A stretch of DNA of 64,000 nt, from assembly GCA_965218975.1 (NCBI GenBank), contig OZ244717.1, forward strand, positions 1,056,001-1,120,000, in the 5' to 3' direction. The notes below the pieces were generated by a model that made no database searches, was not told where the DNA came from, and saw only the letters and a program-made list of their open reading frames with translations. Shown here one piece after another: positions 9,608 to 27,771 of the stretch (positions are counted from its first letter, which is position 1; every line of letters starts with the position of its first letter). Source of the stretch: Candidatus Oxydemutatoraceae bacterium. Lineage in GTDB: Bacteria > Pseudomonadota > Gammaproteobacteria > Poriferisulfidales > Oxydemutatoraceae. The position numbers and the translations under genes were made by a program.

Positions 9608-10221
9608 AACTAAATTGCTTACTTTTAGCCAATGCAAAAACCATTTTTGAATGAACTACGAAAAGAGAGAGCTCTTGTAAATATTTATTTGATCAAGTGA
9701 TAAGGATTATCGGGGGAATGCTAGGGCATTTGACTCATAGTACTGACAATGCTAAACAGCAAAACGGCTTAGGCATTCTCTCAGTAGAAATTTTTACGAT
9801 TATGTTCCGTTAGTATATCGACAAGATTTTGATCAATTAGATTTCTCAACTTTCTTTTACTCGCTGAGTTACATTCAAGCTGTGATCAAGCGAGTTCGGT
9901 TTGTTGTAAGTGATACGAGTTGAGTTTGTTGATAAACTGCTCATAAGTTGCATCCGAATTAACGAGTCGCTATTAATTAACGTTTCACACACTGACGGAT
10001 AATTGTTGCAGCGCCGATAAAGCCTACTACTTTCTACCACTGTACCGGTGCTTTTTATTCTGGCCGAATCCATTGCAAATTAGCGGAATTCCTTTATGAT
10101 GCTTCAATCATAAATGGGGATTACCGAGTCCTCATATAGAATGTTGCAATCAGTGCCGGCTTGGGGTATCTTTACTATAAAATTCATTAGATGCAAAGAT
10201 AAATGCTGGAGGTATAACATA

Positions 10222-12534
10222 ATGACAATCAGTACGAGAATTACCGCATCCGAAGGACATTCGGTACACCATTTGGTATGCCCTCATGATTGTCCGGATA
10301 CTTGTTCCATTTTAGTAACGCGCGACGATAAAACAGGGAAAGCAATTCGTATTCAAGGTGACCCGTCTCATCCGGTTACACGTGGTTATTTGTGTAACAA
10401 GGTTAACCATTATCTTGAGTTAGTTTATAACGAAAACCGAGTTATGTACCCGCATAAACGTATCGGCCTGAAAGGGCCCGGGGCAAAATTTGAGCGCTGT
10501 AGCTGGGACGAAGCACTGAATATCGTCACTAGTAAATTTAAAGAAACAATCAAAGAATACGGTTCCGAAGCAGTGCAACCTTATTCCTATTCGGGAACTT
10601 TGGGGATGATCGGTTATTGGGGGATGGATCAACGTTTTTGGAATAAAATGAATGCCGCGCGCTTAGAGCAATCAATCTGCATTTATGCAGCGATGTGGGC
10701 GGGTATCTACACCTATGGCGTGGCAAACGGACCCGCAATTCATGACGCTTGCGAAGAAGCGGAACTGATCATCCTTTGGGGCACTAATTTAGTCAGTACC
10801 GGAGTACACGCTATCCCCTTTGTTCAGAAAGCGCGTAAGCGCGGCGCTAAGCTAGTGGTCATTGACCCGCGTGTCACGCGGACGACCATGTTGGCGGATT
10901 GGCATATTCAGCCGCGCCCCGGTACGGATGGCGCGCTTGCGCTGGGAATGATGAAAGTAATTGTCGATGAAGGATTGCATGACATGGAGTTTTTGAAAGA
11001 ACAAACGTTGGGTTGGGAAGCTTTGTTGGAGAAGCGTTTACCGGAATATCCGCTTGAAAAAGTTGCCGATATCACCGGTTTGGATGCAGAGACGATTCGC
11101 AAACTAGCGCTGGAATATGCTGCGACCAAGAAGACATATATTCGCGCCAATTATGGCTTAAATCGCCATCAGAACGCGGGACAGATGTGCCGTTGCATTT
11201 TAATCTTACCGTGCATCACCGGCGCGTGGCGAGATAGTTGTGGCGGCGTTGCCTTCGGGACTTTAGAAGAAATGTGGCTAAAATTTCCGTTGGCTAAGTT
11301 GCAACGTCCCGATTTAGGTAACCGTGCCGAATCACGCATTGTGAATATGGTGCAGATCGGACGTGCGCTGACGGAAAATATCGGTGTGGACGGCAAACCA
11401 ATGGACCCGCCGATTAAGAACTTGTTCGTGTATAACTCCGACCCGGCCAACTGTGCGCCGAATACTAATAATGTGCGCAAGGGGTTGATGCGTGGCGATT
11501 TATTTGTTACGGTGCACGATACGTTTTGGACGGATACTTGTGATTATGCCGACATTGTGTTACCGGCGGATACGCAACTTGAACGCATGGACTTGCATGC
11601 CGCCTATGGGCACTATGTGTTTAGTATGAACAAACCGATTATTGAACCGCTTGGCGAGAGCGTCTGTAACGCTGAGTTATTCCGTATGATGGCAAAAAAA
11701 ATGGGCTATGTTGAAGAAGGGGATAATGCTTTTACTCAGACGGATGAAGAAATGATTCGCGAAATCATTGATGATAAGGATAATCCTTTGATGGAAGGTG
11801 TTACTTATGAAGATTTGGAGAAGAACGGTTGGGTAAAAGGAAAAGTAAATGCCGAGCGGCGCAATTACTTGAAAAATGGTTGGCCGACCGACAGTAAGAA
11901 AATTGAGATTTATTCCAAGACACTGGAAAATCAGGGGCAGGATCCTTTGCCAGTGCATCATCCCGAGATGGAAGGACAGGAAGATTATGAAACACGTAAG
12001 AAGTATCCATTGCAGGTATTAAGCAGCGCAACTCACCACTTCATTGGAGATTCGTTTCAGTCGGTGCCGCGTCTGAACGCAATGATGTCGCGACCGACGG
12101 TTGAGTTGAATACTGCGGATGCAATGGAGCGTGGGGTCAAGGACGGCGATTTGGTTCGCCTCTATAACGATCGTGGTGAAACTTATTGTCATGCGGTGAT
12201 TATTGATGGTCTGTTACCCGGAGTATGCTCAACGCAAAAACAGTTCAAAGGGAGCCATACTTTGGGTGGCGTCAACGCAAATGCGTTAAATACCGAAGTG
12301 CTGACTGATTTCGGTATGAGCCCATCATTCTATTCTGTGCTGGTACAAGCTGAAAAAGTTGATGATGCCGATCGGATGACCTTGCAGAAATGGCGTCAAA
12401 TCGGTGGTATTGACGGCTACATTAAGCAATGGCGGAATGATCCGCGCAACGCCAACATTGAAGCAAGCGATGAAGAGATCACTGAATTCGTCAAGGGGAA
12501 GTACCCCGAAGTATTTGAGGCGAGAGCAAGCTGA
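10222..12534 (+). CDS. Molybdopterin-dependent oxidoreductase (DMSO reductase/MopB superfamily) with N-terminal 4Fe-4S motif, cytoplasmic
   Basis: CPHDCPDTC...GYLCNK cluster motif, VVIDP, PGTDGALALG, YADIVLPA and a C-terminal molydop-binding domain (NTADAMERGVKDGDLVRLYNDRG). GGAGG RBS precedes ATG 10222; no twin-arginine leader seen. Confidence 0.9.
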   Translation: MTISTRITASEGHSVHHLVCPHDCPDTCSILVTRDDKTGKAIRIQGDPSHPVTRGYLCNKVNHYLELVYNENRVMYPHKRIGLKGPGAKFERCSWDEALNIVTSKFKETIKEYGSEAVQPYSYSGTLGMIGYWGMDQRFWNKMNAARLEQSICIYAAMWAGIYTYGVANGPAIHDACEEAELIILWGTNLVSTGVHAIPFVQKARKRGAKLVVIDPRVTRTTMLADWHIQPRPGTDGALALGMMKVIVDEGLHDMEFLKEQTLGWEALLEKRLPEYPLEKVADITGLDAETIRKLALEYAATKKTYIRANYGLNRHQNAGQMCRCILILPCITGAWRDSCGGVAFGTLEEMWLKFPLAKLQRPDLGNRAESRIVNMVQIGRALTENIGVDGKPMDPPIKNLFVYNSDPANCAPNTNNVRKGLMRGDLFVTVHDTFWTDTCDYADIVLPADTQLERMDLHAAYGHYVFSMNKPIIEPLGESVCNAELFRMMAKKMGYVEEGDNAFTQTDEEMIREIIDDKDNPLMEGVTYEDLEKNGWVKGKVNAERRNYLKNGWPTDSKKIEIYSKTLENQGQDPLPVHHPEMEGQEDYETRKKYPLQVLSSATHHFIGDSFQSVPRLNAMMSRPTVELNTADAMERGVKDGDLVRLYNDRGETYCHAVIIDGLLPGVCSTQKQFKGSHTLGGVNANALNTEVLTDFGMSPSFYSVLVQAEKVDDADRMTLQKWRQIGGIDGYIKQWRNDPRNANIEASDEEITEFVKGKYPEVFEARAS

Positions 12535-12605: not shown

Positions 12606-13733
12606 ATGGTGGATTTTTCAAAGTTTAACGATCCTATTGCCGGCAATTTGGGTTCCACACCCACGGCTGATCCGACGATGTATAGTCGTCATGTCATCAT
12701 TCGCAAGGGAATCATTAAAAGTATTAGAAATCTTACTTATGATACTTATGAGCTCATTGTGAAATGTGAAGACGATCAAGGTGAGGTTTTAGAAAGAAAA
12801 GCCGGGCAATATGCGACACTAATGCCTGATTACTTGGATAAGCCTAGGTCTTATTCGTTTGCTCGGGCTCCCGAATGTGAGAAACCGGGCGAATATACTT
12901 TCTTTATTCGTTTGCTGCATGGCGGGTTATTCTCAGGGTGGCTATTTGAGGAAGATCGCACCAATCACCCGCTGACAATTAGCGGACCATTGGGCAACTT
13001 TGGTTTGGATGCATCGGACCGTACCATGCTATGTGTTGCAGGCGGTAGCGGCATGAGTGCGATTTTTGCAATTCTTGAGCATGCAGTTGAGCAACAAGTC
13101 AAGCGTGACGCTTATTTCTTTTATGGTGCGCGCACTCAAAAAGATCTCTATATGCTTGATGAATTACAAGATTTTGTTAAGCGATGGCACCTGAGTTATA
13201 AATTGGAATTTATTCCGGTACTTTCAGGCGACCCTGCCGCTAATAAAAGTTGGACGGGGGCGACCGGATTTGTGACTGATTATGTAGAGAAGGAGTATAT
13301 CCGGAATAAAAAAATTGACGTAGCGGATGCGGTCGCATATTTCTGCGGACCACCGCCGATGATTGATTTAGGTGTCGAGATGCTTTTGAATAAAGGGATG
13401 GATGTCAACGATATCCGGTATGATAAATTTGAGGACGCAAGTTCTCCCGTGCCTGTTATTGACAACTCAAAGTGTGTGTTATGCGATGAATGCCTGATGG
13501 TGAAACCGATCGATAAGTGCATTGTTGAAGTAATCGATTTGAATAATGGTAACGGCTCCGGCTATCGTCCGGTGATTCCGGCTCAAACGTCGGGTCTTTA
13601 TTATAATTCCTTATATATAGATGAGAGTGAATGCATTCGGTGCTACGCTTGCGTTGATGCATGCCCTGCCGATGCGATTAATCCAAATTATGCGAAAGAG
13701 TTAAAAACTTTACGTCGCAGCAGCGGCACTTAA
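12606..13733 (+). CDS. FAD/NAD(P)H-binding reductase (FNR/oxygenase-reductase family) fused to a C-terminal 4Fe-4S dicluster ferredoxin domain
   Basis: RSYSFA, GPLGNF, VAGGSGMS, FYGART and YFCGPPPMI motifs, then CVLCDECLMVKP and CIRCYACVDACP. Confidence 0.88.
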   Translation: MVDFSKFNDPIAGNLGSTPTADPTMYSRHVIIRKGIIKSIRNLTYDTYELIVKCEDDQGEVLERKAGQYATLMPDYLDKPRSYSFARAPECEKPGEYTFFIRLLHGGLFSGWLFEEDRTNHPLTISGPLGNFGLDASDRTMLCVAGGSGMSAIFAILEHAVEQQVKRDAYFFYGARTQKDLYMLDELQDFVKRWHLSYKLEFIPVLSGDPAANKSWTGATGFVTDYVEKEYIRNKKIDVADAVAYFCGPPPMIDLGVEMLLNKGMDVNDIRYDKFEDASSPVPVIDNSKCVLCDECLMVKPIDKCIVEVIDLNNGNGSGYRPVIPAQTSGLYYNSLYIDESECIRCYACVDACPADAINPNYAKELKTLRRSSGT

Positions 13734-13893
13734 AGTTAATAGTTTTCGGCATTTTACATCAGTTATTTTCTGTCGCGCATTTCTTAGCCCGAATGATTTT
13801 TACGTTTTGCTTGTTTTCTTTATTGAAAAACGGACGCGTTCTATATGCGCTGAAGTCAGTTGATATATAATCAATAAATAACTGATTAACGAT

Positions 13894-13970
13894 GCGCCCG
13901 TAGCTCAGTCGGATAGAGTACCTGGCTACGAACCAGGCGGTCGGGAGTTCGAATCTCTCCGGGCGCGCCA
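13894..13970 (+). tRNA. tRNA-Arg (anticodon ACG), copy 1
   Basis: GCGCCCG acceptor stem, TAGCTCAGTCGGATAGAGT D-arm, cctgg-ctACGaa-ccagg anticodon arm, GTTCGAATC T-loop, encoded CCA; 77 nt. Confidence 0.97.
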
Positions 13971-13984
13971 CCGATTACCATAAT

Positions 13985-13997
13985 AATCAAGCAGTTA
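13985..13997 (+). promoter_or_regulatory. IHF-consensus site just downstream of tRNA-Arg (also present in the duplicate)
   Basis: AATCAAGCAGTTA matches WATCAANNNNTTR exactly. Confidence 0.4.
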
Positions 13998-14159
13998 TTA
14001 CTCCGGGCAGTGGTCGCTTGCGGGCAGTGGTCGCTTGGAGTTTTTCTCTAAAGCTAGGTTTTGGTATTAAGGCAAATAGGTGCATACTGTAAGGTACAAA
14101 CACGTTATGTGTTACGATGTAAGAATATTGCCCCAATTCTTTAAAGGAGTTCTGATGTG

Positions 14160-17100
14160 ATGAAGATATGTTTCAAGTTTCTTCCTAATTTATATCTGCT
14201 TGCCGTATTGATTGCTTTAGCCTATGTTCCGCATGCCCATGCACAATCTGGTATTTGCGACCGTAACCTGCAGGTTCGAAATGCGATTCTCGACCGGCTT
14301 GGGCTTGACATGACCGCCTGTGCGGAGGTAACCGAGGACAATCTGAACTCCCTCGCCGGGGAGTTGACAGTGATGGGAACATTTCTCCCCTTGAATGAGG
14401 GGGACTTTGATAATCTTGGCTCTTTGAAAACGCTGAATTTTTTTGGCAATGAAGCAGTGAATCTACCTGCGGGTATATTTGATGCTCTTGACTCTTTGGA
14501 AACGCTGGATGTGTCGGACAATGGATTATCGAGTCTGCCTGCGGGTATATTTGATGCTCTTGACTCTTTGGAAACGCTGGATTTGACGTCCAATCGATTA
14601 TCGAGTCTGCCTGAGGGCATATTTAATAATCTTGGCTCTTTGGCAACGCTGAATTTGCAACTCAATCAATTATCGCGTCTGCCTGAGGGCATATTTAATA
14701 ATCTTGACTCTTTGGCAACGCTGATTTTGCGTGACAATCAATTATCGAGTTTGCCTGCGGGCATATTTGATAGTCTTGGCTCTTTGACAACGCTGAATTT
14801 GGAGAACAATGAATTATCGAGTCTGCCTGCGGGCATATTTAATAATCTTGACTCTTTGGCAACGCTGATTTTGCGTGACAATCAATTATCGAGTCTGCCT
14901 GCGGGTATATTCGAGCGCCTTACATCGCTTGAAACAATTGATTTGAGCGACAATCCCGGCACTGACTCCTTCAAACCGTCGGCGAATGCCGGATCCGACC
15001 GGACTACCACCGTCGGCGAAGTCGTTAGGCTGGACGCTACCGCCACCGATGGCGGTCCGTTTGGGAGCAACCTGAGTTTTGCGTGGTTGCAGGACGGAAG
15101 CGATAGCACGACTGTGACGCTGACCGGTGCCGCTACCGCCACACCCACGTTCACCGTGCCGGCGGACACGCCGGACGGGACCGTGTTTCAATTTGATCTG
15201 ACAGTGGTCGGCGGGAATAAGTTTGAGACTCTCAATGATTCGTCTCGACAGAGACTGACCGACAGCGACTCGGTGGCGGTAACGGCGATTGCAAGAGCGG
15301 GCTTTGGCATTTGCGATCGCACATCTCAGGTTCAAGAGGCGATTCTTGACGCACTTTTTCCGGACGTAGTAAGCTGTGCGGAAGTTACTACTACCCATCT
15401 GGAATCTATCATCAGCCTGGATCTTAGCTTTAGGAATATTTCTGAATTGGATTCAAATGATTTGAACGGGCTCACAGCGCTTTCAATGCTGCCACTAAGC
15501 AACAATCCTTCGTTGATGACTCTGCCCGCTGGCGTATTCGACGGTCTCAGTACGCTTAGCGAACTGTATCTGCAAAGCAACAACCTGACGACCCTAACCA
15601 CCGTTGTGTTTAACGACCTCACTGCGCTTGAAAGACTGGATCTGGGAGATAACGACCTGACGACCCTACCCGCCGGTGTGTTTGGTAGCCTCACCAGGCT
15701 TACAGAGTTGCGTCTGAATCAGAATAATCAGCTGACAATGCTGCCCGCCGGTGTGTTTGACAGCCTCATTGCGCTTAAAGAACTGGATCTGGGAGAGAAC
15801 AACCTGACGACCCTACCCGACGGTGTGTTTGACGGCCTCGCCAGGCTTGAACTGTTGTATCTGGATCAGACTCAGCTGACAATGCTGCCCGCCGGTGTGT
15901 TTGACAGCCTCACCATGCTTAGACTGTTGCATCTGGATGATAATCAGCTGGAAATGCTGCCCGACGACGTGTTCGAACCCCTAACATCATTGACTTCCAT
16001 CACTCTATTTAATAATCCCGGAAGTGAATCCTTCAAGCCGATAGCGAATGCCGGTCCCGACCGAATGGTTATTGTCGGTAATGAAGTTACGTTGGACGGC
16101 ACTGCTACCGACGGCGGTCCGTTCGGGAATAACATCGAATTTATGTGGTCGCAAACCACGGATGATGCTGTGTTAGTTAGTCTTACCAAGTCTAGGACCG
16201 CCAAGCCTATGTTTACTGTGCCGGGGAACACGCCGGTTGGAACGACGCTCCGATTCACCCTGAGAGTTACAGGCAAAGGTGAGACTGTGCATGGTCCAAA
16301 TGACCCGATGGATCACCTTACCACCCATGACGACGTGATAGTGACGGCTGCTGCACGCCCGAACGTAGCGCCGGAATTCACCGGTGCACCAAGTTTCGCG
16401 GTCAACGAAGGGCAGACGATAGTCGGCACGGTGACGGCTGAAGATGCGAATATAGAAGACGAGGTAACGTATTCAATTACCGGCGATGCGGATGATGCCT
16501 TGTTCACCATCGACTCGTCTTCGGGCGAGTTGAGTTTCGTCACTGCACCGGACTATGAGAATCCGGCGGGTATGGACAACGAGTACATGCTCACCGTGAC
16601 GGCGAGCGGCGGCACGGACGCTCGGGCGTTGACGACGACGCAAGCGATTACGGTGACGGTGCTTGATGTGGCTATGACGGTCACGCTTACGGCAGGTGAG
16701 CCAGTGGTAACGGAAGGCGAGTCGGCGGTGTTTACACTCAGCCGGACAGACGCGACGGATGCGCCGGCATTGACAGTGAACATTACGGTAGATGATTCCG
16801 ACGGAGCACTTGCGGCTGCGCCGCCTAATACGGTGACTTTTGATGCCGGTTCTGCGACGACAATACTTAGCCTCGCTACTGACGACGATATGCTTGATGA
16901 GCCCGATAGCATACTGACGGTTGACATCATTAGCATTAGCGGTGTGGGTTATGAGGACGTTTCTCGCGGACCAATTTCGGTAGTAGTTACCGACAATGAC
17001 GTTACGTTCATCGAAGAAATTGCGCCGGGCGGGCCAAATGGATTCATTGTTGATATCGGTGCTGCGGATTACGTTATTATTTCAGGCCGGCATAATGATG

Positions 17101-18704
17101 GGGCAAGGATTAACGCAGACGTTTTGCTGCCGAATATGTTTGGCTCTTCGTTGCGAACCTGTATTGTCTATGGTTTTCCGGAGAATGAACCGACGAACGT
17201 AGAGGAGTGCGATTCTTTGCACGGATCGTTGATAGAAGAGCCGATAGTTCAAGTGCCTGTGTTCGGTAGCGTATTGTACGGGGTTGATGTTGAAGACGAC
17301 GGGGGGGTGACTACTGTTCGGGAAAGTCTAAGGATTTATGTTGCACCGCCAACCGGATTTCCTTCCGAAGTGCGGTGGCGGCATTTTCCTGGCCCTGCAC
17401 CGATAGACATGCTTTTATTGACGTCGGATAATGATGGCGTGCCGGAATCAATTGACTTTGATTTTGAACTAGGGTCCGGCAAGCGAATGGTCGGTCCGAT
17501 AGATGTTTCTTTTGCAAAGGGGCGTAGCACGGTCAGTATAAGTTTATCGTCTGAGGAAAACGTTGTTCGACTTTCAAAAATTAATGGAGTTGCTTTTTCC
17601 GGTAGACGCGATGACGATTTGAGTATGGTCACCGAAGCGATGCTTCGTGACAACAAACTATTTTCGCTGGGCAATAATGAAATAGAGTTTGTTGGTGCGG
17701 AAGAATCGGATGAAAGCCCGATTGAGTCCGTCGAGCCCGTCGTTTCGCTGCCCGAGTTGGTCACATTTGATCAAGTAACCACAATCACGCTGACGGGCGA
17801 TTATATTGTTAATGTTTTCGCATACGCTACGGCGACAGCGACTTTCGATCAAGTGGGTATGTCCGAAGACGTTGTGAGGGGGGTGGTAATTGACATCAGC
17901 AATGATGATACTATCAGGAGTTTTGACAATCGGGGTATGGAGCGTATCATTTCGTTTGACGATGCGGATTTCAGCCCGCACATTTTTCAAGTGGAAATAT
18001 CCACCAACATGGAAGTGATAGCGACTATCAACGCACTCGGAGACGTTGCGACCGATTTAGGAAATGCTAGTACGGAGCAGCTTACACTAGCGACGCGTGG
18101 GGAATTGATGCCTGGTTTCTATGCTTACAAAAACGTTTTCAATCTCCCGCCGTTGCCGGACGGTCGCGAGGTTTCGGACCCGGAAATCGAGGTGTTTGAT
18201 TTCATAGTCACTGACTTCCCCGCTGGCGTTGCAACCATCGTGATTAAGTTGGTTGCTCCGACTCAGGAAGGATCGCTCTACTATAGATATCGTCGTTCGG
18301 AAGACGAGTTGACAGATGACTGGGTACCTTTTGAAGCGGGAGACATTGATAAGATTTTCAGTGCGCCTGCTCCATGCCCGAGTGCGCAAGCGAGTAGAGA
18401 AACGAATGCGAGTATCGGTCAAAGCGATTATGCGTGGCATTTAGCGTCTAGCGGCACTCGCGCAAGCGACCAATGTCTGATGCTTGAAATCGAAGACGGT
18501 TCGGTAAATGATGCCGATGGCAGAGTTAACGGGATTATATTTAGCACCGGCGCAAGTGTTGGCGTCGCTGATGATGGTGACACTGATGACGGTCGTCGTC
18601 GCGGCGGTGGTGGCGCCATCGGTTTATGGTGGCTACTTCTGCTCGTCGGCATAGTCTCCGGAGCTGCTGCGTTGAAGCGTCGAGATGAAGGTTTCAACCC
18701 TTGA
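14160..18704 (+). CDS. Leucine-rich-repeat surface protein A (2 LRR blocks, 2 PKD-like, cadherin, Calx-beta-like, GlyGly-CTERM anchor)
   Basis: Signal peptide ending AHA-QS; 24-aa repeats LxxLxLxxNxLxxLPxGxFxxLxx with GICDR...C caps; ANAG PKD-like domains; cadherin-like APDYENP; GGGGAIGLWWLLLLVG...KRR tail. AAGGAG RBS. The last codons come from the IS end. Confidence 0.88.
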   Translation: MKICFKFLPNLYLLAVLIALAYVPHAHAQSGICDRNLQVRNAILDRLGLDMTACAEVTEDNLNSLAGELTVMGTFLPLNEGDFDNLGSLKTLNFFGNEAVNLPAGIFDALDSLETLDVSDNGLSSLPAGIFDALDSLETLDLTSNRLSSLPEGIFNNLGSLATLNLQLNQLSRLPEGIFNNLDSLATLILRDNQLSSLPAGIFDSLGSLTTLNLENNELSSLPAGIFNNLDSLATLILRDNQLSSLPAGIFERLTSLETIDLSDNPGTDSFKPSANAGSDRTTTVGEVVRLDATATDGGPFGSNLSFAWLQDGSDSTTVTLTGAATATPTFTVPADTPDGTVFQFDLTVVGGNKFETLNDSSRQRLTDSDSVAVTAIARAGFGICDRTSQVQEAILDALFPDVVSCAEVTTTHLESIISLDLSFRNISELDSNDLNGLTALSMLPLSNNPSLMTLPAGVFDGLSTLSELYLQSNNLTTLTTVVFNDLTALERLDLGDNDLTTLPAGVFGSLTRLTELRLNQNNQLTMLPAGVFDSLIALKELDLGENNLTTLPDGVFDGLARLELLYLDQTQLTMLPAGVFDSLTMLRLLHLDDNQLEMLPDDVFEPLTSLTSITLFNNPGSESFKPIANAGPDRMVIVGNEVTLDGTATDGGPFGNNIEFMWSQTTDDAVLVSLTKSRTAKPMFTVPGNTPVGTTLRFTLRVTGKGETVHGPNDPMDHLTTHDDVIVTAAARPNVAPEFTGAPSFAVNEGQTIVGTVTAEDANIEDEVTYSITGDADDALFTIDSSSGELSFVTAPDYENPAGMDNEYMLTVTASGGTDARALTTTQAITVTVLDVAMTVTLTAGEPVVTEGESAVFTLSRTDATDAPALTVNITVDDSDGALAAAPPNTVTFDAGSATTILSLATDDDMLDEPDSILTVDIISISGVGYEDVSRGPISVVVTDNDVTFIEEIAPGGPNGFIVDIGAADYVIISGRHNDGARINADVLLPNMFGSSLRTCIVYGFPENEPTNVEECDSLHGSLIEEPIVQVPVFGSVLYGVDVEDDGGVTTVRESLRIYVAPPTGFPSEVRWRHFPGPAPIDMLLLTSDNDGVPESIDFDFELGSGKRMVGPIDVSFAKGRSTVSISLSSEENVVRLSKINGVAFSGRRDDDLSMVTEAMLRDNKLFSLGNNEIEFVGAEESDESPIESVEPVVSLPELVTFDQVTTITLTGDYIVNVFAYATATATFDQVGMSEDVVRGVVIDISNDDTIRSFDNRGMERIISFDDADFSPHIFQVEISTNMEVIATINALGDVATDLGNASTEQLTLATRGELMPGFYAYKNVFNLPPLPDGREVSDPEIEVFDFIVTDFPAGVATIVIKLVAPTQEGSLYYRYRRSEDELTDDWVPFEAGDIDKIFSAPAPCPSAQASRETNASIGQSDYAWHLASSGTRASDQCLMLEIEDGSVNDADGRVNGIIFSTGASVGVADDGDTDDGRRRGGGGAIGLWWLLLLVGIVSGAAALKRRDEGFNP

Positions 18705-20627
18705 CTTCGTAGGTTTTGGCTCGTAAGTGATTGCCCAGGAATGATTGTGCCATTGCCCTCATGATTCTCAAGGGCACTACATTACGGTGTTGTTTGTAGC
18801 CCTCCGCGCTCAGCTTCCCCCAGGACGTGACTTGTCGGGAAGCGGGAACGGAGCTTCGTTCCATTTCAGGCCAACACTACGGTAAGATCCTATTGGCGTC
18901 CGCGCTCGCGCGGCTCGGCATCGCATACCGCTTCTGTGTGTCGGTACGTACCAAGATGCTCAACTGCAAGGTGTCGAGCTCGCGCCGGATCCGTTCCGCG
19001 CTCATCGGGAAGCCCAGTGCCTTAAGCCGCCGGCGCAGCTGCTGCAAACAGCAGAAGGCCATGTAGCAGATCGCAATATGTGCCTGGATACGCCGCGGCT
19101 TCCAGTGAAAGATCGGGCGGATGCAAAGGTCATGCTTGTTGGTGCGAAAGCAATGTTCTACTTTCCACAACCGGCGGTACTGCGACAGCAACTCCTTCGG
19201 TGCCGTCTCCTCGTTGCCGTGCGCGATGATTGCGCGCAGGCCGTCCCAACGCGCCGCATCGGCCACCTTGGTCACATCAATCTTAACCCGGCCCTTTGCA
19301 GGGAAGCTTAAGTAACAGGCATAGCCGCGCGACACGAAACCTGCCGGGCGCTCGCTGCGTTGATACTTCCGGCGCAACTGTGCCAATATGCGTTCGCGAA
19401 CTTCCCGGTCCTTGCGCGCGCGCCGGCGCGAATAGGTGACTATGATCCGCCGACCTTCGTGGCGAATCATCCGGTAACGCAGGTCCTGCGTTTTGAGCCA
19501 GCCTTGATCGTCTGCTGCACTGAGCGCCTGCAGCTTGATCTTGGCCGGGGCCGACTTGAGACGATAGCCGAGCACATAGGCCAAGCCCTGCTCCTGCAGG
19601 AATGTTTGGTTCTCACGGCTCAGCATCGCCGCATCGGCCACTACTGTAAATACAGCACCCGGATGTCGCTGTTGCAGGGTTGTCACTGCCTGCATCAAGG
19701 TCTTGCCCTCAAAGGTGTTGCCCGGCAACAGTGCGTAGTCCACCGGCAGACCGTCGCAGGTCGTCATCAGTGCCAGCAACACCTGGCAGCGGTGCGGTTT
19801 GCCGTCCTTGCTGTAGCCCTTTGCGCGCAACGGGTCCTCTTGCTCGCTCTCGAAGTACAGGGTCGTGCAATCAAAGAAGAACACTTTGAGGGGCTGATCA
19901 TACAACTTCTGTGCCGCCTGATGAGACTGTTCCCGGATGCGCGCAATCACCGCCTCCTCAAGGTGGTCCATAGTCTGGTAAACCCGGTCGAGATTGAGCG
20001 AAACGCCGCCGCTTCGTTCCAATCCGCACACCGTGTCACGCTTGCTCTGCGGCTGCGCGATACGCGCCGGCACCAGCTCGCGCAGAATGCGGTTGGCTGC
20101 CGTACGCCGTGCACCCAACACCTGGTTCCAACCCAGGTGCGAATAAATTTGCGTGAACGCCTCGCGCACCCCAAGCATCAGCCGCATCTCCTCACGGCAT
20201 TCGGCAAGATCTACTCCGAAGCGCGCCAGACGTGGTGCCAGCCGCGCCTCAGCTGCGAGATCCGCGTACTGCTTCGGTGTGAACAGCGACTGTTGTGCTG
20301 TACCAGCTTGGCGCAGCTCTTCCAAGGTGACCTCGCCGAGCTTGCGCAAAGATGCAAGCTGCTCGGGACTGTCGGCAGTGCCGATATGCCGCACCACACG
20401 CTGACGGGGACCATCGGCAGTGCGCACGGAACGTACAATCTGCAAGCGAGTGCGGCCATGTTCGGGATCATATTTTTCACGCAGGTACATAGACCCGAAT
20501 GATAACCCAAAACAAAAGTGAAAACAAGTCTGGGGGCACTACAATGGATTTTTCGGCGGCGCCCGGATAACCCTATGATAATAAAAGATTTATTTTTTGC
20601 CCAAAGGTCAAAACCTACGAAGTCAAG
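18700..20627 (-). mobile_element. IS1634-family insertion sequence, copy 1
   Basis: Terminal inverted repeats CTTGACTTCGTAGGTTTTG / CAAAACCTACGAAGTCAAG enclosing a DDE transposase. Confidence 0.92.
18877..20490 (-). CDS. IS1634-family transposase, 1-bp insertion near the 3' end truncating the C-terminus
   Basis: FFDCTTLYFE, GYSKDGK, VVADAAM, YRRLWKVEHCFR...IRPIFHW...IQAHIAIC. Relative to copy 2, an extra T (ggatcTtaccg) changes ANRIYRSV... to ANRILP*. Confidence 0.88.
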   Translation of the reverse strand: MYLREKYDPEHGRTRLQIVRSVRTADGPRQRVVRHIGTADSPEQLASLRKLGEVTLEELRQAGTAQQSLFTPKQYADLAAEARLAPRLARFGVDLAECREEMRLMLGVREAFTQIYSHLGWNQVLGARRTAANRILRELVPARIAQPQSKRDTVCGLERSGGVSLNLDRVYQTMDHLEEAVIARIREQSHQAAQKLYDQPLKVFFFDCTTLYFESEQEDPLRAKGYSKDGKPHRCQVLLALMTTCDGLPVDYALLPGNTFEGKTLMQAVTTLQQRHPGAVFTVVADAAMLSRENQTFLQEQGLAYVLGYRLKSAPAKIKLQALSAADDQGWLKTQDLRYRMIRHEGRRIIVTYSRRRARKDREVRERILAQLRRKYQRSERPAGFVSRGYACYLSFPAKGRVKIDVTKVADAARWDGLRAIIAHGNEETAPKELLSQYRRLWKVEHCFRTNKHDLCIRPIFHWKPRRIQAHIAICYMAFCCLQQLRRRLKALGFPMSAERIRRELDTLQLSILVRTDTQKRYAMPSRASADANRILP

Positions 20628-21564
20628 AAAAGCCGGGCAATATGCGACACTAATGCCTGATTACTTGGATAAGCCTAGGTCTTATTCGTTTGCTCGGGCT
20701 CCCGAATGTGAGAAACCGGGCGAATATACTTTCTTTATTCGTTTGCTGCATGGCGGGTTATTCTCAGGGTGGCTATTTGAGGAAGATCGCACCAATCACC
20801 CGCTGACAATTAGCGGACCATTGGGCAACTTTGGTTTGGATGCATCGGACCGTACCATGCTATGTGTTGCAGGCGGTAGCGGCATGAGTGCGATTTTTGC
20901 AATTCTTGAGCATGCAGTTGAGCAACAAGTCAAGCGTGACGCTTATTTCTTTTATGGTGCGCGCACTCAAAAAGATCTCTATATGCTTGATGAATTACAA
21001 GATTTTGTTAAGCGATGGCACCTGAGTTATAAATTGGAATTTATTCCGGTACTTTCAGGCGACCCTGCCGCTAATAAAAGTTGGACGGGGGCGACCGGAT
21101 TTGTGACTGATTATGTGGAGATGGAGTATATCCGGAATAAAAAAATTGACGTGGCGGATGCGGTCGCATATTTCTGCGGACCACCGCCGATGATTGATTT
21201 AGGTGTCGAGATGCTTTTGAATAAAGGGATGGATGTCAACGATATCCGGTATGATAAATTTGAGGATGCAAGTTCTCCCGTGCCTGTTATTGACAACTCA
21301 AAGTGTGTGTTATGCGATGAATGCCTGATGGTGAAACCGATCGATAAGTGCATTGTTGAAGTAATCGATTTGAATAATGGTAACGGCTCCGGCTATCGTC
21401 CGGTGATTCCGGCTCAAACGTCGGGTCTTTATTATAATTCCTTATATATAGATGAGAGTGAATGCATTCGGTGCTACGCTTGCGTTGATGCATGCCCTGC
21501 CGATGCGATTAATCCAAATTATGCGAAAGAGTTAAAAACTTTACGTCGCAGCAGCGGCACTTAA
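20628..21564 (+). pseudogene. 5'-truncated duplicate of the FNR-ferredoxin reductase, in frame with an IS-end-derived leader (ORF 20518-21564)
   Basis: Near-identical to 12797-13733 (a few SNPs, one K to M). It lacks the first ~64 codons of the original. Confidence 0.8.
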
Positions 21565-21724
21565 AGTTAATAGTTTTCGGCATTTTACATCAGTTATTTT
21601 CTGTCGCGCATTTCTTAGCCCGAATGATTTTTACGTTTTGCTTGTTTTCTTTATTGAAAAACGGACGCGTTCTATATGCGCTGAAGTCAGTTGATATATA
21701 ATCAATAAATAACTGATTAACGAT

Positions 21725-21801
21725 GCGCCCGTAGCTCAGTCGGATAGAGTACCTGGCTACGAACCAGGCGGTCGGGAGTTCGAATCTCTCCGGGCGCGCC
21801 A
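21725..21801 (+). tRNA. tRNA-Arg (anticodon ACG), copy 2
   Basis: Identical to 13894-13970. Confidence 0.97.
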
Positions 21802-21990
21802 CCGATTACCATAATAATCAAGCAGTTATTACTCCGGGCAGTGGTCGCTTGCGGGCAGTGGTCGCTTGGAGTTTTTCTCTAAAGCTAGGTTTTGGTATTA
21901 AGGCAAATAGGTGCATACTGTAGGGTACAAACACGTTATGTGTTACGATGTAAAAATATTGCCCCAATTCTTTAAAGGAGTTCTGATGTA

Positions 21991-24900
21991 ATGAAAATGT
22001 GTTTCAAGTTTCTTCCTAATTTATATCTGCTTGCCGTATTGATTGCTTTAGCCTATGTTCCGCATGCCCATGCACAATCTGGTATTTGCGACCGTAACAT
22101 GCGGGTTCAAAATGCGATTCTCGACCAGCTTGCCGACATAGACGACTGTGCGGAGGTAACCGAGGACAATCTGAACTCCCTCGCCGGGGAGTTGACAGTG
22201 ATGGGAACATTTCTCCCCTTGAATGAGGGGGACTTTGATAATCTTGGCTCTTTGACAACGCTGAATTTGAGGAACAATGAATTATCGAGTCTGCCTGCGA
22301 ACATATTTGATGCTCTTGGCTCTTTGGAAACGCTGAATTTGTTGGGCAATGGTGAAATACCGAATCTACCTGAGGGCATATTTGATGAACTTGACTCTTT
22401 GACAACGCTGAATTTGGCGGGCAATGGATTTTTGAGTCTGTCTGCGGGTATATTTAATAATCTTGGCTCTTTGACAACGCTGAGTTTGAGGAACGAGAAT
22501 TTTTCGAGTCTGCCTGCGGGTATATTTGATGCTCTTGGCTCTTTGACAACGCTGAATTTGGAGAACAATTTTTTATCGAGTCTGCCTGCGGGCATATTTA
22601 ATAATCTTGACTCTTTGACAACGCTGAATTTGTCGAAAAATCTTTTAACGCTGTATTTGGAGAACAATGAATTATCGAGTCTGCCTGCGGGTATATTCGA
22701 GCGCCTCACATCGCTTGAAACAATTGATTTGCGCGACAATCCCGGCAGTAACTCCTTCAAACCGTTGGCGAATGCCGGATCCGACCTGACTATCACCGTC
22801 GGCGAAGTCGTTAGGCTGGACGCTACCGCCACCGATGGCGGTCCGTTTGGGAGCAACCTGAGTTTTGCGTGGTTGCAGGACGGAAGCGATAGCACGACTG
22901 TGACGCTGACCGATGCCGCTACCGCCACACCCACGTTCACCGTGCCGGCGGACACGCCGGACGGGACCGTGTTTCAATTTGATCTGACAGTGGTCGGCGG
23001 GAATAAGTTTGGGACTCTTGATGATTCGTCTCAACAGAGACTGACCGACAGCGACTCGGTGGCGGTAACGGCTGTTGTAATACCGCCTGGCGCGCCGACG
23101 ACTTTGACGGCAACGCCGGGTAACGGGCAGGTAGAATTGGAGTGGGCGCCGCCGGGAGATATCGGCGGTAGCGCGATCACGCATTATGAATATCGGCAGA
23201 GAACCACTGGCGAAGATTTCGGTTCATGGACGGATATTCCGGACGGCGATGATGATGCGGATAGTGACGCCGGCAACGAGACGCGTTCTACAGTCACTAG
23301 TCTGACGAACGGCATCGCATACACCTTTCAAGTGCGCGCAGTCAGCGCCGGCGGGGGCCCAGGCGAGGCAACCGACGAAGTAACGGCGATTGCAGGAATG
23401 GGCTTGGGCATTTGCGATCGTACACGGCAGGTTCAAGAGGCGATTCTCGACCGGCTTGGGCTTGACATGACCGTGACCGCCTGTGCGGAGGTAACCGAGG
23501 ACAATCTGAACACCCTCGCCGGGGGGTTGGACTTTTCTCTAGAAGGAATTACCGCCCTGAAGGAGGGGGACTTTGATGATCTTGACTCTTTGACAACGTT
23601 GAATTTGCGGGGCAACTCTAGAAATCATTTGTCGAGTCTGCCTGCGGATATATTTGATGATCTTACCTCTTTGACAACGCTGGATTTGGGTTTCAATCGA
23701 TTATCGAGTCTGCCTGCGAGTCTGCCTCCGGGCATATTTGATGATCTTGACTCTTTGGAAACGCTGGATTTGACGTTCAATCTATTATCGAGTCTGCCTC
23801 CGGGCATATTTGATGCTCTTGACTCTTTGGAAACGCTGCTTTTGTTGAACAATGAAATATCGAGTCTGCCTGAGGACATATTTAATAGTCTTGGCTCTTT
23901 GACAACGCTGAATTTGCAACTCAATCAATTATCGCGTCTGCCTGAGGGCATATTTAATAATCTTGACTCTTTGGCAACGCTGATTTTGCGTGACAATCAA
24001 TTATCGAGTTTGCCTGCGGGCATATTTGATAGTCTTGGCTCTTTGACAACGCTGAATTTGCGTGGCAATCAATTATCGCGTCTGCCTGAGGGCATATTTA
24101 ATAATCTTGACTCTTTGGCAACGCTGATTTTGCGTGACAATCGATTATCGAGTTTGCCTGCGGGCATATTCGAGCGCCTCACATCGCTTAAAACAATTGA
24201 TTTGCGCGACAATCCCGGCACTGACTCCTTCATACCGTCGGCGAATGCCGGATCCGATCGGACCGCCGCCCCCGACGAAGTCGTTATGCTGGACGCTACC
24301 GCTACCGACGGCGGTCCGTTCGGGAGCAACCTGAGTTTTGCGTGGTTGCAGGACGGAAGCGATAGCACGACTGTGACGTTGACCGGCGCCGCTACCGCCA
24401 CGCCCACGTTCACCGTGCCGGTGGGCACGCCGCTGGACGGGATCGTGTTTCGATTTGATCTGACAGTGGTCGGCGGGAATAAGTTTGGGACTCTTGATGA
24501 TTCCTCTCGACGGAGACTGACCGACGACAGCGCCTCGGTGGAGGTAACGGTTGGAATACCGCCCGGCGCGCCGATGTTTTTGACAGCAACGTCGGGCAAG
24601 GGGCAGGTAGGATTGGAGTGGATGTCGCCGGGCGGTATCGGCAGCACAATCACGCATTATGAATATCGGCAGAGAACCACTGGCGAAGATTTCGGTTCAT
24701 GGACGGATATTCCGGACGGCGATGATGCGAATAGTGACGCCGGCAACGAGACGCGTTATACAGTCACTAGTCTGACGAACGGCATCGCATACACCTTTCA
24801 AGTGCGCGCAGTCAGCGCCGCGGGCCCAGGCGAGGCAACCGACGAAGTAACGGCGATTGCAGGAATGGGCTTGGGCATTTGCGATCGTACACGGCAGGTT

Positions 24901-27771
24901 CAAGAGGGGATTCTCAGCGAGCTTTCCGATGCAACCGACTGTGCGGTGGTAGCCGATACCGATCTGAACTCTATCATTGAGCTGGATCTGGCCGGAACTG
25001 AAATTACCGCCCTGAAGGTAGGAGACTTTGCCGGACTCGCTACGATGACGACGCTGAATCTGAGCTTTAATGAACTATCGAGTTTGCCCGCTGGCGTATT
25101 CGATGGTCTCAGCACGCTTGAACGTCTATATATGCAAAAAATCGGCCTGACGACCCTGACAGAAAGTGTGTTTAACGACCTCACTGCACTTAAAGAACTG
25201 GATCTGGTAGAGAACAAACTGACAACCCTGCCCGGCGGTGTGTTTGACAGCACCACCATGCTTAATCGGTTGTATCTGAATGATAATCAGTTGGAAATGC
25301 TGCCCGACGACGTGTTCGAGCGCTTAACATCATTGGATTTCATCACTCTATTCCGTAATCCCGACAGTGAATCCTTCAAACCGATGGCAAATGCCGGTCC
25401 CGACCGAGAGGTTATTGCCGGTGACAGAGTTACGTTGGAGTTGGACGGCACTGCTACCGACGGCGGTCCGTTCGGGAATAACATTGAATTTTCTTGGTCG
25501 CGCGACGATCTTTTGGATACAGAGGGGCTTACCAAGTGGACAACCGCCAGGCCTATGTTTATTGTGCCGGGGAACACGCCGGTTGGAACGACGCTCCGAC
25601 TCACCCTGACGGTTAGAGGCAAAGGTGAGACTGCACCTCGATTCGATGACCCGAGAGGTCACCTTACCGACCGTACCACATTGACAGTGACGGTTCTACC
25701 CCGGCCTAAGATATCAATCATGCTGCCACCCGGTGGGGAGTCGGTGGTGGAAGGGGAACCTGCGGTGTTCATACTGAACCGGACGGAGTCGGCAAATACG
25801 GCGCTGACGGTGAATATTAAGGTGATTAGGACGGTTTTTGACTCGGCGCCGCCCAGTACGGTGACTGCGGTGCTTGTGGTGCCGCCTGATACGGTGACTT
25901 TTGATGCCGGTTCTGCGACGACAATACTTAGCCTCGCTACTGACGACGATATGCTTGATGAGCCCGATAGCATACTGACGGTTGACATCATTAGCGGTGC
26001 GGGTTATGAGGACGTTTCTCGCGAACCAATTTCGGTAGTAGTTACCGACAATGACGTTACGTTCATCGAAGAAATTGCGCCGGGCGGGCCAAATGGATTC
26101 ATTGTTGATATCGGTGCTGCGGATTACGTTATTATTTCAGGCCGGCATAATGATGGGGCAAGGATTAACGCAGACGTTTTGCTGCCGGATATGTTTGGCT
26201 CTTCGTTGCGAACCTGTATTGTCTATGGTTTTCCGGAGAATGAACCGACGAACGCAGAGGAGTGCGATTCTTTGCACGGATCGTTGATAGAAGAGCCGAT
26301 AGTTCAAGTGCCTGTGTTCGGTAGCGTATTGTACGGGGTTGATGTTGAAGACGACGGGGGGGTGACTACTGTTCGGGAAAGTCTAAGGATTTATGTTGCA
26401 CCGCCAACCGGATTTCCTTCCGAAGTGCGGTGGCGGCATTTTCCTGGCCCTGCACCGATAGACATGCTTTTATTGACGTCGGATAATGATGGCGTGCCGG
26501 AATCAATTGACTTTGATTTTGAACTAGGGTCCGGCAAGCGAATGGTCGGTCCGATAGATGTTTCTTTTGCAAAGGGGCGTAGCACGGTCAGTATAAGTTT
26601 ATTGCCTGAGGAAAACGTTGTTCGACTTTCAAAAATTAATGGAGTTGCTTTTTCCGGTAGACGCGATGACGATTTGAGTATGGTCACCGAAGCGATGCTT
26701 CGTGACAACAAACTATTTTCGCTGGGCAATAATGAAATAGAGTTTGTTGATGCGAAAGAACCGGATGAAAGCCCGATTGAGTCCGTCGAGCCCGTCGTTT
26801 CGCTGCCCGAGTTGGTCACGTTTGATCAAGTAACCACAATCACGCTGACGGGCGATTATATTGTTAATGTTTTCGCATACGCTACGGCGACAGCGACTTT
26901 CGATCAAGTGGGTATGTCCGAAGACGTTGTGAGGGGGGTGGTAATTGACATCAGCAATGATGATACTATCAGGAGTTTTGACAATCGGGGTATGGAGCGT
27001 ATCATTTCGTTTGACGATGCGGATTTCAGCCCGCACATTTTTCAAGTGGAAATATCCACCAACATGGAAGTGATAGCGACTATCAACGCACTCGGAGACG
27101 TTGCGACCGATTTAGGAAATGCTAGTACGGAGCAGCTTACACTAACGACGCGTGGGGAATTGCTGCCTGGTTTCTATGCTTACAAAAACGTTTTCAATCT
27201 CCCGCCGTTGCCGGACGGTCGCGAGGTTTCGGACCCGGAAATCGAGGTGTTTGATTTCATAGTCACTGACTTCCCCGCCGGCGTTGCAACTATCGTAATT
27301 GAGTTGGCTGCTCCGACTCAGGAAGGATCACTCTACTATAGATATCGTCGTTCGGAAGATGATTCGACAGATGACTGGGTACCTTTTGAAGCGGGAGACA
27401 TTGATAAGATTTTCAGTGCACCTGCTCCATGCCCGAGTGCGCAAGCGAGTAGAGAAACGAATGCGGGTGGCAGTCAAAACGATTATGCGTGGTATTTAGC
27501 GTCTAGCGGCACTCGCGCAAACGACCAATGTCTGATGCTTGAAATTGAAGACGGTTCGGTAAATGATGCCGATGGCAGAGTTAACGGGATTATATTTAGC
27601 ACCGGCGCAAGTGTTGGCGTCGCTGATGATGGTGTCACTGATGACGGTCATCGTCGCGGCGGTAGTGGCGCCATCGGTTTATGGTGGCTACTTCTGCTCG
27701 TCGGCATAGTCTCTGGAGCTGCTGCGTTGAAGCGTCGAGATGAAGGTTTCAACCGACGATTTTTACCTTAA
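21991..27771 (+). CDS. Leucine-rich-repeat surface protein B (3 LRR blocks, 3 PKD-like, 2 FN3, Calx-beta-like, GlyGly-CTERM anchor)
   Basis: 1926 aa. Nearly the same signal peptide and near-identical C-terminal ~600 aa as protein A; FN3 motif LEWAPPGDIGGSAITHYEY...LTNGIAYTFQVRAV twice; GGSGAIGLWWLLLLVG...KRR tail. Confidence 0.88.
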   Translation: MKMCFKFLPNLYLLAVLIALAYVPHAHAQSGICDRNMRVQNAILDQLADIDDCAEVTEDNLNSLAGELTVMGTFLPLNEGDFDNLGSLTTLNLRNNELSSLPANIFDALGSLETLNLLGNGEIPNLPEGIFDELDSLTTLNLAGNGFLSLSAGIFNNLGSLTTLSLRNENFSSLPAGIFDALGSLTTLNLENNFLSSLPAGIFNNLDSLTTLNLSKNLLTLYLENNELSSLPAGIFERLTSLETIDLRDNPGSNSFKPLANAGSDLTITVGEVVRLDATATDGGPFGSNLSFAWLQDGSDSTTVTLTDAATATPTFTVPADTPDGTVFQFDLTVVGGNKFGTLDDSSQQRLTDSDSVAVTAVVIPPGAPTTLTATPGNGQVELEWAPPGDIGGSAITHYEYRQRTTGEDFGSWTDIPDGDDDADSDAGNETRSTVTSLTNGIAYTFQVRAVSAGGGPGEATDEVTAIAGMGLGICDRTRQVQEAILDRLGLDMTVTACAEVTEDNLNTLAGGLDFSLEGITALKEGDFDDLDSLTTLNLRGNSRNHLSSLPADIFDDLTSLTTLDLGFNRLSSLPASLPPGIFDDLDSLETLDLTFNLLSSLPPGIFDALDSLETLLLLNNEISSLPEDIFNSLGSLTTLNLQLNQLSRLPEGIFNNLDSLATLILRDNQLSSLPAGIFDSLGSLTTLNLRGNQLSRLPEGIFNNLDSLATLILRDNRLSSLPAGIFERLTSLKTIDLRDNPGTDSFIPSANAGSDRTAAPDEVVMLDATATDGGPFGSNLSFAWLQDGSDSTTVTLTGAATATPTFTVPVGTPLDGIVFRFDLTVVGGNKFGTLDDSSRRRLTDDSASVEVTVGIPPGAPMFLTATSGKGQVGLEWMSPGGIGSTITHYEYRQRTTGEDFGSWTDIPDGDDANSDAGNETRYTVTSLTNGIAYTFQVRAVSAAGPGEATDEVTAIAGMGLGICDRTRQVQEGILSELSDATDCAVVADTDLNSIIELDLAGTEITALKVGDFAGLATMTTLNLSFNELSSLPAGVFDGLSTLERLYMQKIGLTTLTESVFNDLTALKELDLVENKLTTLPGGVFDSTTMLNRLYLNDNQLEMLPDDVFERLTSLDFITLFRNPDSESFKPMANAGPDREVIAGDRVTLELDGTATDGGPFGNNIEFSWSRDDLLDTEGLTKWTTARPMFIVPGNTPVGTTLRLTLTVRGKGETAPRFDDPRGHLTDRTTLTVTVLPRPKISIMLPPGGESVVEGEPAVFILNRTESANTALTVNIKVIRTVFDSAPPSTVTAVLVVPPDTVTFDAGSATTILSLATDDDMLDEPDSILTVDIISGAGYEDVSREPISVVVTDNDVTFIEEIAPGGPNGFIVDIGAADYVIISGRHNDGARINADVLLPDMFGSSLRTCIVYGFPENEPTNAEECDSLHGSLIEEPIVQVPVFGSVLYGVDVEDDGGVTTVRESLRIYVAPPTGFPSEVRWRHFPGPAPIDMLLLTSDNDGVPESIDFDFELGSGKRMVGPIDVSFAKGRSTVSISLLPEENVVRLSKINGVAFSGRRDDDLSMVTEAMLRDNKLFSLGNNEIEFVDAKEPDESPIESVEPVVSLPELVTFDQVTTITLTGDYIVNVFAYATATATFDQVGMSEDVVRGVVIDISNDDTIRSFDNRGMERIISFDDADFSPHIFQVEISTNMEVIATINALGDVATDLGNASTEQLTLTTRGELLPGFYAYKNVFNLPPLPDGREVSDPEIEVFDFIVTDFPAGVATIVIELAAPTQEGSLYYRYRRSEDDSTDDWVPFEAGDIDKIFSAPAPCPSAQASRETNAGGSQNDYAWYLASSGTRANDQCLMLEIEDGSVNDADGRVNGIIFSTGASVGVADDGVTDDGHRRGGSGAIGLWWLLLLVGIVSGAAALKRRDEGFNRRFLP

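Follow-up and report, generated by a model that had tools for sequence, protein, structure and literature searches.

In a 64,000-nucleotide stretch of the genome of an uncultured gammaproteobacterium, Candidatus Oxydemutatoraceae bacterium (contig OZ244717.1, positions 1,056,001 to 1,120,000; this whole stretch is hereafter the window, and positions are given in its coordinates unless marked as genome positions), an insertion sequence (IS) assigned to the IS1634 family lies exactly between two direct copies of a multi-kilobase segment. The left arm (12797-18699, + strand, 5903 bp) holds the 3'-terminal 937 nt of a reductase gene, a tRNA-Arg gene and a giant gene for a leucine-rich-repeat (LRR) surface protein. 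The right arm (20628-27754, + strand, 7127 bp) holds a 5'-truncated copy of the reductase gene, a second tRNA-Arg gene and a second LRR gene. The IS itself, the junction copy, occupies 18700-20627 on the - strand (1928 bp). The arrangement may represent an old and extreme target-site duplication made by this element, a reading that is favoured here with less than full conviction, its chances being put slightly below even.

Under this reading, the element would have inserted once, and its two ends would have joined the target about 5.9 kb apart, not tens to hundreds of bases apart. Repair synthesis would have copied the stretch between the two joints, leaving the IS between two copies of the reductase 3' part, the tRNA-Arg gene and the LRR gene. 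Such a distance could arise if the two ends acted uncoupled from each other, each being transferred singly and in turn, either to a looped target or to two sister duplexes; strand-displacement synthesis would then start at the 3' ends of the target and cross the duplex lying in between. Later divergence of the arms would then comprise point changes, the gain of a 1.47-kb module in the second LRR gene and the replacement of the central allele in one of the LRR genes. The event would be old, because the IS belongs to the older of two sub-clades in this genome, the C-terminal end of its transposase is missing and the arms have diverged.

Structure of the junction

The boundaries were located by BLAST of the arms and the IS against the window. 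The sequence to the right of the IS (20628; alignment from 20625) resumes at 12797 (12794), and the sequence to its left stops at 18699, which is equivalent to 27754. The direct arms abut both ends of the junction copy with nothing intervening. The trinucleotide AAG is common to the IS end and to 12794-12796, leaving the right junction uncertain by 3 nt. No IS is present at 12797 or 27755, the only IS matches in the window being 18700-20627 and 37599-39510. Apart from the 3-nt ambiguity, these results agree with an earlier note on this DNA, which had placed an IS at the exact junction of a direct duplication of a tRNA gene and an LRR gene, with arms of 5903 and 7127 bp and no IS at the outer boundaries. 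Because the IS abuts both breakpoints to within 3 nt, it is mechanistically tied to the duplication, and its position cannot be a coincidence.

The second IS copy of the window (37599-39510, + strand, 1912 bp) carries an intact transposase open reading frame (ORF) of 567 aa (37710-39413) and is flanked by a perfect, abutting 323-bp direct repeat (37276-37598 and 39511-39833). The likeness in geometry that the earlier note had seen between the two copies is thus real, and copy 2 is the ordinary form of what is found at the junction copy.

The element and its relatives

Several features place the element in the IS1634 family, as had been proposed. The transposase scores 327.7 bits against the NCBIfam model NF033559 (IS1634 family; cut-off 100), with residues 28-536 covering positions 1-476 of the 483-position profile, and it also matches Pfam DDE_Tnp_1 (2.4e-13). 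Copies of the element are 1911-1928 bp long, and their ends (CTTGACTT...) form a 19-nt perfect inverted repeat; in the junction copy, the perfect terminal inverted repeats of 19 bp read CTTGACTTCGTAGGTTTTG. Length and ends fit the description given for the family by De Palmenaer (2008), namely 1500-2000 bp with terminal inverted repeats of the form C-----YT. By its sequence, therefore, the element is classified as an IS1634-family member.

The genome contains 15 near-full copies and about nine fragments. An identity matrix separates the near-full copies into two groups. The young clade, whose members are at least 96.9% alike (99.4-99.9% in the closest pairs), includes all ten copies that carry perfect flanking repeats. 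The older trio consists of the copies at genome positions 883, 1074700 (the junction copy) and 1328090, which are mutually 97.5-97.9% alike. The differences within the trio (2.1-2.5%) are consistent with the age of the arms, which differ by 0.3-0.5% in the reductase/tRNA part and by 1.9% in the tail. The transposase ORF of the junction copy (18877-20490, - strand, 537 aa) is 97% identical to the intact copy-2 ORF over 535 aa and is missing the last ~24 residues. It retains the pentapeptide QLSIL, found at residues 516-520 of 567 in the copy-2 transposase. A study of an Acidiphilium IS1634-family element describes a transposase in which a QLxLF-like motif near the C-terminus mediates binding to the beta sliding clamp (PMC4549789). 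QLSIL bears a mere resemblance to that motif and may be regarded as a lead towards replication-linked targeting, not as a result.

A census of copies and flanking repeats, which the earlier note had suggested, supports long duplications in this clade. Ten of the 15 near-full copies are bounded by abutting repeats that are 100% identical, with lengths of 23, 29, 32, 67, 77, 116, 323, 433, 543 and 618 bp (the 543-bp repeat has a 36-nt offset). The repeat is absent or at most 7 bp long in four others, and the remaining copy is the 5.9-kb case. When the 300-bp flanks of the four repeat-less copies were compared with the genome by BLAST, no exchange partners were found, so that the genome gives no direct sign of IS-IS recombination. 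None of nine partial copies checked for the junction geometry has it. Two LRR-family tails that lie 210-226 bp from left-end fragments of the IS were considered as new examples and rejected, being copies of one older unit.

Related elements were collected by a protein-guided scan of one genome per species, which gave 77 loci in long-read alphaproteobacterial metagenome-assembled genomes (MAGs) labelled Amylibacter, Ruegeria, Paracoccaceae and Alphaproteobacteria. The elements encode transposases with 52-57% identity to the one studied here and have terminal inverted repeats of the same type. After exclusion of five loci in which no terminal-repeat pair was recognised by pattern, 85 unique copies remained. 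Simple abutting repeats, defined by at least 97% identity, occur in 73 of the 85, with lengths of 13-1110 bp plus one of 3769 bp (locus L118). By BLAST, ten of the other 12 have repeats that are rearranged, offset, imperfect or cut by the end of the locus, and two have none. The rearranged group includes repeats of 1029 bp (L154, 99.9% identity), 1085 bp (L121, right arm offset by 234 bp), 1330 bp (L092, in a complex region), 1842 bp (L123, offset) and 2038 bp (L105, with a 1.35-kb deletion in one arm). The clade thus demonstrably makes long and variable target duplications, cleanly documented to about 1.1 kb.

The 3769-bp repeat, the one case besides the junction that exceeds 3 kb, was considered as a second multi-kilobase example and downgraded to a weak one. 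Its right arm is truncated where the contig stops, the initial 584 bp belong to a different repeat present about 40 times, and most of the sequence recurs a third time on a separate contig. This ~584-bp repeat, which differs from the IS and recurs about 40 times at 100% identity in the Amylibacter MAG concerned (G041), is probably the end of another mobile element.

Repeat lengths and target half-sites

Pooled over the relatives (72) and the genome studied here (10), the 82 clean repeat lengths are distributed in a lognormal-like manner (Shapiro p = 0.10), with a median of 152 bp, a standard deviation of 0.49 log10 units and a maximum of 1110 bp. Inclusion of nine rearranged cases and L118 (n = 92) shifts the median to 190 bp, with a Shapiro p of 0.60, and places 5903 bp at z = 2.8. 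With the rearranged cases included, the tail of the distribution continues beyond 1 kb, and Pareto-tail estimates predict 0.1-0.9 events of the 5.9-kb size among 93 copies. RecA is encoded in the genome, and long perfect repeats around an IS should therefore vanish faster than short ones. The measured repeats are accordingly survivors, and the true length tail is probably heavier than the observed one.

The sequences at the repeat boundaries were compared over 79 insertion sites (loci L091-L167 and the genome copies). Across the start of the repeats the bases read T-S|A-R-A, with A at +1 in 64 of the 79 sites, and across their end the reverse complement, T-Y-T|S-A, with T at -1 in 67 of the 79. 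Of 85 copies, 74 have T as the base directly outside the IS on the left and 67 have A on the right; either the element extends one base further at its ends than assigned, or each end has a separate target preference. The junction site fits the motif in part, with G|AAA at the start and ACC|GA at the end. Because the motif is mirrored at both ends of the repeats, each IS end appears to pick a half-site of its own, mirrored as in a normal short duplication, with a variable distance between the two. The 5.9-kb repeat would, as we infer, have arisen in the same way as the shorter repeats. The more general proposition, that ends of this IS1634 clade choose half-sites independently, that duplication length follows an open-ended, roughly lognormal distribution and that a single insertion can duplicate whole genes, here a tRNA gene and a surface-protein gene of 4.5 kb, is plausible but judged somewhat less likely than not.

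Divergence between the arms

The two arms are real and direct; they are not plain copies, which corrects the earlier note on one point. Identity is 99.7% over the reductase/tRNA part and about 98% in the tail, whereas the centre of the LRR gene is 78-82% identical or non-collinear. A global alignment gives four mismatches in the ~1200 nt of 12797-14000, and five more just upstream of and at the start of the LRR gene. Identity then falls to ~81-85% in the first LRR module (14400-14990). The best match of 14457-15056 in gene 1 is the second module of gene 2 (92%), and 15523-16347 is 78-82% identical to gene 2. No counterpart of 16348-16829 exists in gene 2, and the overlapping stretch 16257-16856 is ~87% identical to paralogues elsewhere in the genome, with no match in gene 2. 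The last 1.8 kb (16913-18699) shows 34 mismatches and one 6-nt indel. Gene 2 has in addition an extra internal module of 1.47 kb (families D16 and D17).

A drop in identity from 99.7% at the edge to 80% in the centre is beyond what point mutation alone could produce, and the centre cannot have diverged in place. Arms that were identical at birth would be compatible with this pattern only if an allele was replaced later.

Public sequence runs contain other forms of the LRR gene. A hybrid contig from run X1 joins 25570-25888 to 16828-18223, and contigs from run X5 join 14365 to 25002 and 25056 to 23717, which are further LRR module joints. Such hybrid and rearranged contigs suggest exchange between the two LRR copies or strain-level shuffling of the LRR gene. 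The joints in X1 and X5 are signs of LRR gene variation in the population and of nothing beyond it.

Support for the assembled structure

The structure was checked against Logan contigs (k = 31 graphs) of four coded public runs. These runs may be the source sample, and the depth comparison is consequently an assembly check, not an independent replication. In run X2, contig depth is 161 on the left flank, 144 on the right flank and 132 for a contig specific to the left arm (15257-15747), and contigs common to both arms reach 336 (20625-21771), 316 and 298. The arms thus stand at about 2:1 over the flanks, as expected for two copies per genome; two single-copy strains would give equal depth. Contig ends in X2 fall at 12823 and contig starts at 20625 and 27725, in every case 30 nt across a breakpoint, as expected for k = 31 if the junctions of left flank with arm, IS with arm, arm with IS and arm with right flank all exist. 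None of the contig pieces listed spans the whole stretch, and run X5, with a depth of 2-7, is too thin for copy number.

A challenge to the structure is an assembly artefact, in which two single-copy strains that carry the IS at different sites would have been joined through it by the assembler. In favour of this, the genome is most likely metagenome-assembled, the closest records found being MAGs, and the differences between the arms resemble strain alleles. Moreover, a contig of run X1 crosses 12797 unbroken as a mosaic of letters from both arms, a pattern that bubble popping could also produce. Against this, the arm-shared contigs of X2 have about twice the flank depth where two strains predict a ratio of 1, and the genome is a single contig of 2,081,000 bp (2.08 Mb; 47.7% G+C) that is 99.44% complete and 0.08% contaminated. 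The X2 depths argue against a two-strain chimera, and an artefact of this kind is considered very unlikely.

A tandem arrangement of tRNA-Arg was also seen. In runs X1, X2 and X4, the end of the tRNA-Arg gene is followed by eight letters and then by the start of tRNA-Arg again (13893-13970 / 21724-21801), at depths of 50-96. This tandem form is absent from the assembly and possibly comes from another organism. One relative (G008) has three partial tRNA-Arg repeats ~190 bp apart.

Origin of the duplication

Several observations weigh against a single extreme target-site duplication. On the fit to the clean lengths, 5903 bp lies at z = 3.2, corresponding to 6e-4 per insertion or ~5% among 83 copies. 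It is 5.3 times the longest clean repeat and falls outside the range that the element is seen to make. All the ordinary repeats are 100% identical, whereas the 5.9-kb arms are not, and a diverged centre between ends of 98-99.7% identity needs at least one later allele replacement, for which the genome holds no donor above 88% identity anywhere. With RecA present, a perfect 5.9-kb repeat should also be unstable unless it is selected. No empty or single-copy allele was found: the IS is present in 0 of 18 family genomes (E <= 1e-30), the host being the sole member of its genus among the genomes compared, and contigs of the JGI metagenomes gave 0 matches to a 46-nt string of the left flank. Finally, multi-kilobase tandem duplications of surface-protein genes without an IS are frequent in this genome. 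The earlier proposal of a gene-scale target duplication therefore stands in one part, since long variable repeats are a property of the clade here (10 of 15 copies) and in the relatives (73 of 85), and not in the other, the single-transposition origin of the 5.9-kb case, which is not shown in view of the z-score and the diverged arms.

The main rival is recombination between two lineages, which the earlier note had named as an alternative. In this scenario, one lineage carried a single IS insertion at 12797, in the reductase gene, and another carried one in the same orientation at 18699/27754, just before the LRR stop codon. Crossovers inside the IS and in the right flank would yield left flank, segment of one lineage, IS, segment of the other lineage and right flank, the arms being two alleles of the segment. 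The geometry would be identical to that of a target duplication, and the contrast between a housekeeping part at 99.7% and a centre of the hypervariable LRR gene that is 78-82% identical or non-collinear would be explained more cheaply, without extra events. Copies of the clade do cluster, a second copy in the same orientation lying within 10 kb in at least 14 of the 77 relative loci, and the LRR gene varies between samples, as in the X1 hybrid contig and the X5 module joints. Such recombination nevertheless requires that two insertions occurred independently at a distance of 5.9 kb, suitably ordered and oriented, together with a crossover in the IS, when the clade already produces long duplications unaided. 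Neither parental form has been seen, none of the loose ends listed (24/195) lying at 12797 or 27755. On balance, this origin is judged somewhat unlikely, yet it is a serious rival to a target duplication.

Amplification by IS copies at the borders has also been weighed. The textbook product of unequal crossover, IS-segment-IS-segment-IS, is excluded, as neither outer edge of the duplication carries an IS. It could be rescued if two flanking ISs had produced this structure by unequal sister exchange and the outer copies had then been lost precisely through their own repeats. Same-orientation IS pairs a few kilobases apart are common in the relatives, long flanking repeats would permit precise IS loss, and a study of Mycoplasma mycoides PG1 describes 13-kb and 8-kb tandem repeats associated with IS1634 (PMC1798306). 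Such a history would take four events, however, and the least stable repeat, the 5.9-kb one around the middle IS, would have to persist while outer ISs with much shorter repeats vanished; neither an outer IS nor a solo remnant is present. We regard this course as the least probable of those considered, and highly improbable in itself. Integration of an island at tRNA-Arg was rejected as the cause of the duplication, since 937 nt of the reductase gene upstream were copied as well and the island is not closed by a partial tRNA repeat. A single target-site duplication followed by divergence thus continues to be the preferred, if tentative, reading.

Gene content and genomic context

The left outer boundary is crossed by an intact gene for a FAD/NAD-binding, 4Fe-4S reductase (12606-13733, + strand). 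The molybdopterin oxidoreductase encoded at 10114-12534 is its partner, and this synteny is seen in relatives. The second reductase copy (20628-21564, + strand) is without the first 191 nt and has four mismatches with the intact one. The two tRNA-Arg (ACG) genes, at 13894-13970 and 21725-21801 (both + strand), are identical.

LRR gene 1 (14157-18704, + strand) encodes a protein of 1515 aa with a signal peptide, two LRR modules, a cadherin-like domain and a choice-of-anchor-U-like tail. LRR gene 2 (21991-27771, + strand; 1926 aa) is built in the same way, with three LRR modules and with fn3 domains. The stop codon of gene 1 lies 5 nt inside the IS, so that one residue stands for the native last five, and the native stop of gene 2 lies 17 nt past the right outer boundary. 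Despite its IS-altered end, gene 1 retains the C-terminal hydrophobic helix and the KRR cluster. The C-terminal 200 aa of both proteins (17,9xx-18,704 and 26,9xx-27,771) consist of a choice-of-anchor U domain, a glycine run, a hydrophobic helix and KRR. The choice-of-anchor U model NF041766 scores 33.1 bits in gene 2 (cut-off 32) and 24.2 bits in gene 1. These C-termini resemble a sorting signal of the GlyGly-CTERM kind.

In one relative (G004), tRNA-Arg is directly followed by orthologues (45% and 48% identity) of the genes at 54054-54845 and 54842-56200, which marks ~13971-54000 in the window as a variable island. Between tRNA-Arg and the exbB-like genes, the island contains the LRR genes, a type I restriction-modification methylase (28152-30713) and IS copy 2. 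Its G+C content is raised to 54-59% from 28 to 51 kb, and its far end has no partial tRNA repeat.

Elsewhere in the genome, many other multi-kilobase duplications have no IS at the junction. Since many of these tandem duplications are IS-free, the IS is not needed for the expansion of surface-protein families, and the idea that it drives such expansion, put forward in the earlier note, is weakened accordingly. Very long tandem arrays of surface-protein gene modules lie at genome 937,000-987,000 (period ~4.6 kb, 88-95% identity), this one likewise without an IS at the junction, and at genome 742,373-751,661 (repeats of ~350-bp period over 9 kb). A head-to-tail duplication of 2.95 kb (95%; genome 690,584-696,493) ends 168 bp before the IS copy at genome 696,661-698,572, which has no flanking repeat of its own.

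Implications and comparison with known systems

About 90 natural insertions of one clade, from this genome and four related MAGs, display a smooth lognormal range of lengths from 13 bp to more than 1 kb together with a mirrored half-site, and such data offer a basis for building a mechanism. Should the 5.9-kb case belong to the tail of this same distribution-generating process, genes can be duplicated by one transposition in a single step. A second tRNA and a second surface protein of the host-interaction type would thereby be left free to diverge, as is seen here, and transposition would be a direct mechanism of gene duplication, beyond supplying homology for later recombination. If recombination between lineages is the true origin, IS polymorphism in a population can build look-alikes of target duplications, which calls for caution in the reading of MAGs.

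That IS1634 and IS1549 have direct repeats of long and variable length has been known since the late 1990s. The element studied here shares with them a single DDE transposase ORF of ~560 aa, a length of ~1.9 kb, inverted repeats that start with C, and flanking direct repeats that vary from copy to copy and far exceed 5-6 bp. It differs in its host, an uncultured gammaproteobacterium, with relatives in marine alphaproteobacterial MAGs, and in the scale of its repeats. Those described in the published sources range over 8-514 bp, whereas the clade here reaches 1110 bp cleanly and 1-2 kb in rearranged form, and the 5.9-kb case, at ten times the longest published repeat, takes in complete genes. 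Other members of the family behave differently: ISPfe2 (Paracoccus), ISGka5 (Geobacillus) and the Acidiphilium element are described as making 6-bp duplications in observed transpositions (PMC3281130; PMC8024623; PMC4549789), and such short duplications are almost never made by the present clade.

Multi-kilobase direct duplications with an IS at the junction have also been described. At the arn operon of E. coli B, an IS-flanked duplication is reported to have arisen by unequal exchange between IS1 copies (PMC11253626). In M. mycoides PG1, 13-kb repeats "flanked by" IS1634 appeared or vanished within ~86 generations, and 8-kb triplicates "harbor" IS1634, in the wording of that report (PMC1798306). 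On account of the PG1 repeats, an IS1634-linked multi-kilobase duplication is not new as such. The unequal-exchange route places IS copies at both outer ends, unlike the present case, which has none there. In the literature searched, supplements being outside the search, no bacterial IS was found to be described as making target duplications on the kilobase scale.

A mechanistic parallel may be found in maize, where alternative transposition of Ac/Ds on sister chromatids generates tandem direct duplications. Both cases would involve a single transposition whose ends act at separated sites and leave a duplication with the element at its junction; Ac/Ds differs in being a eukaryotic hAT element, with two element copies or sister chromatids involved.

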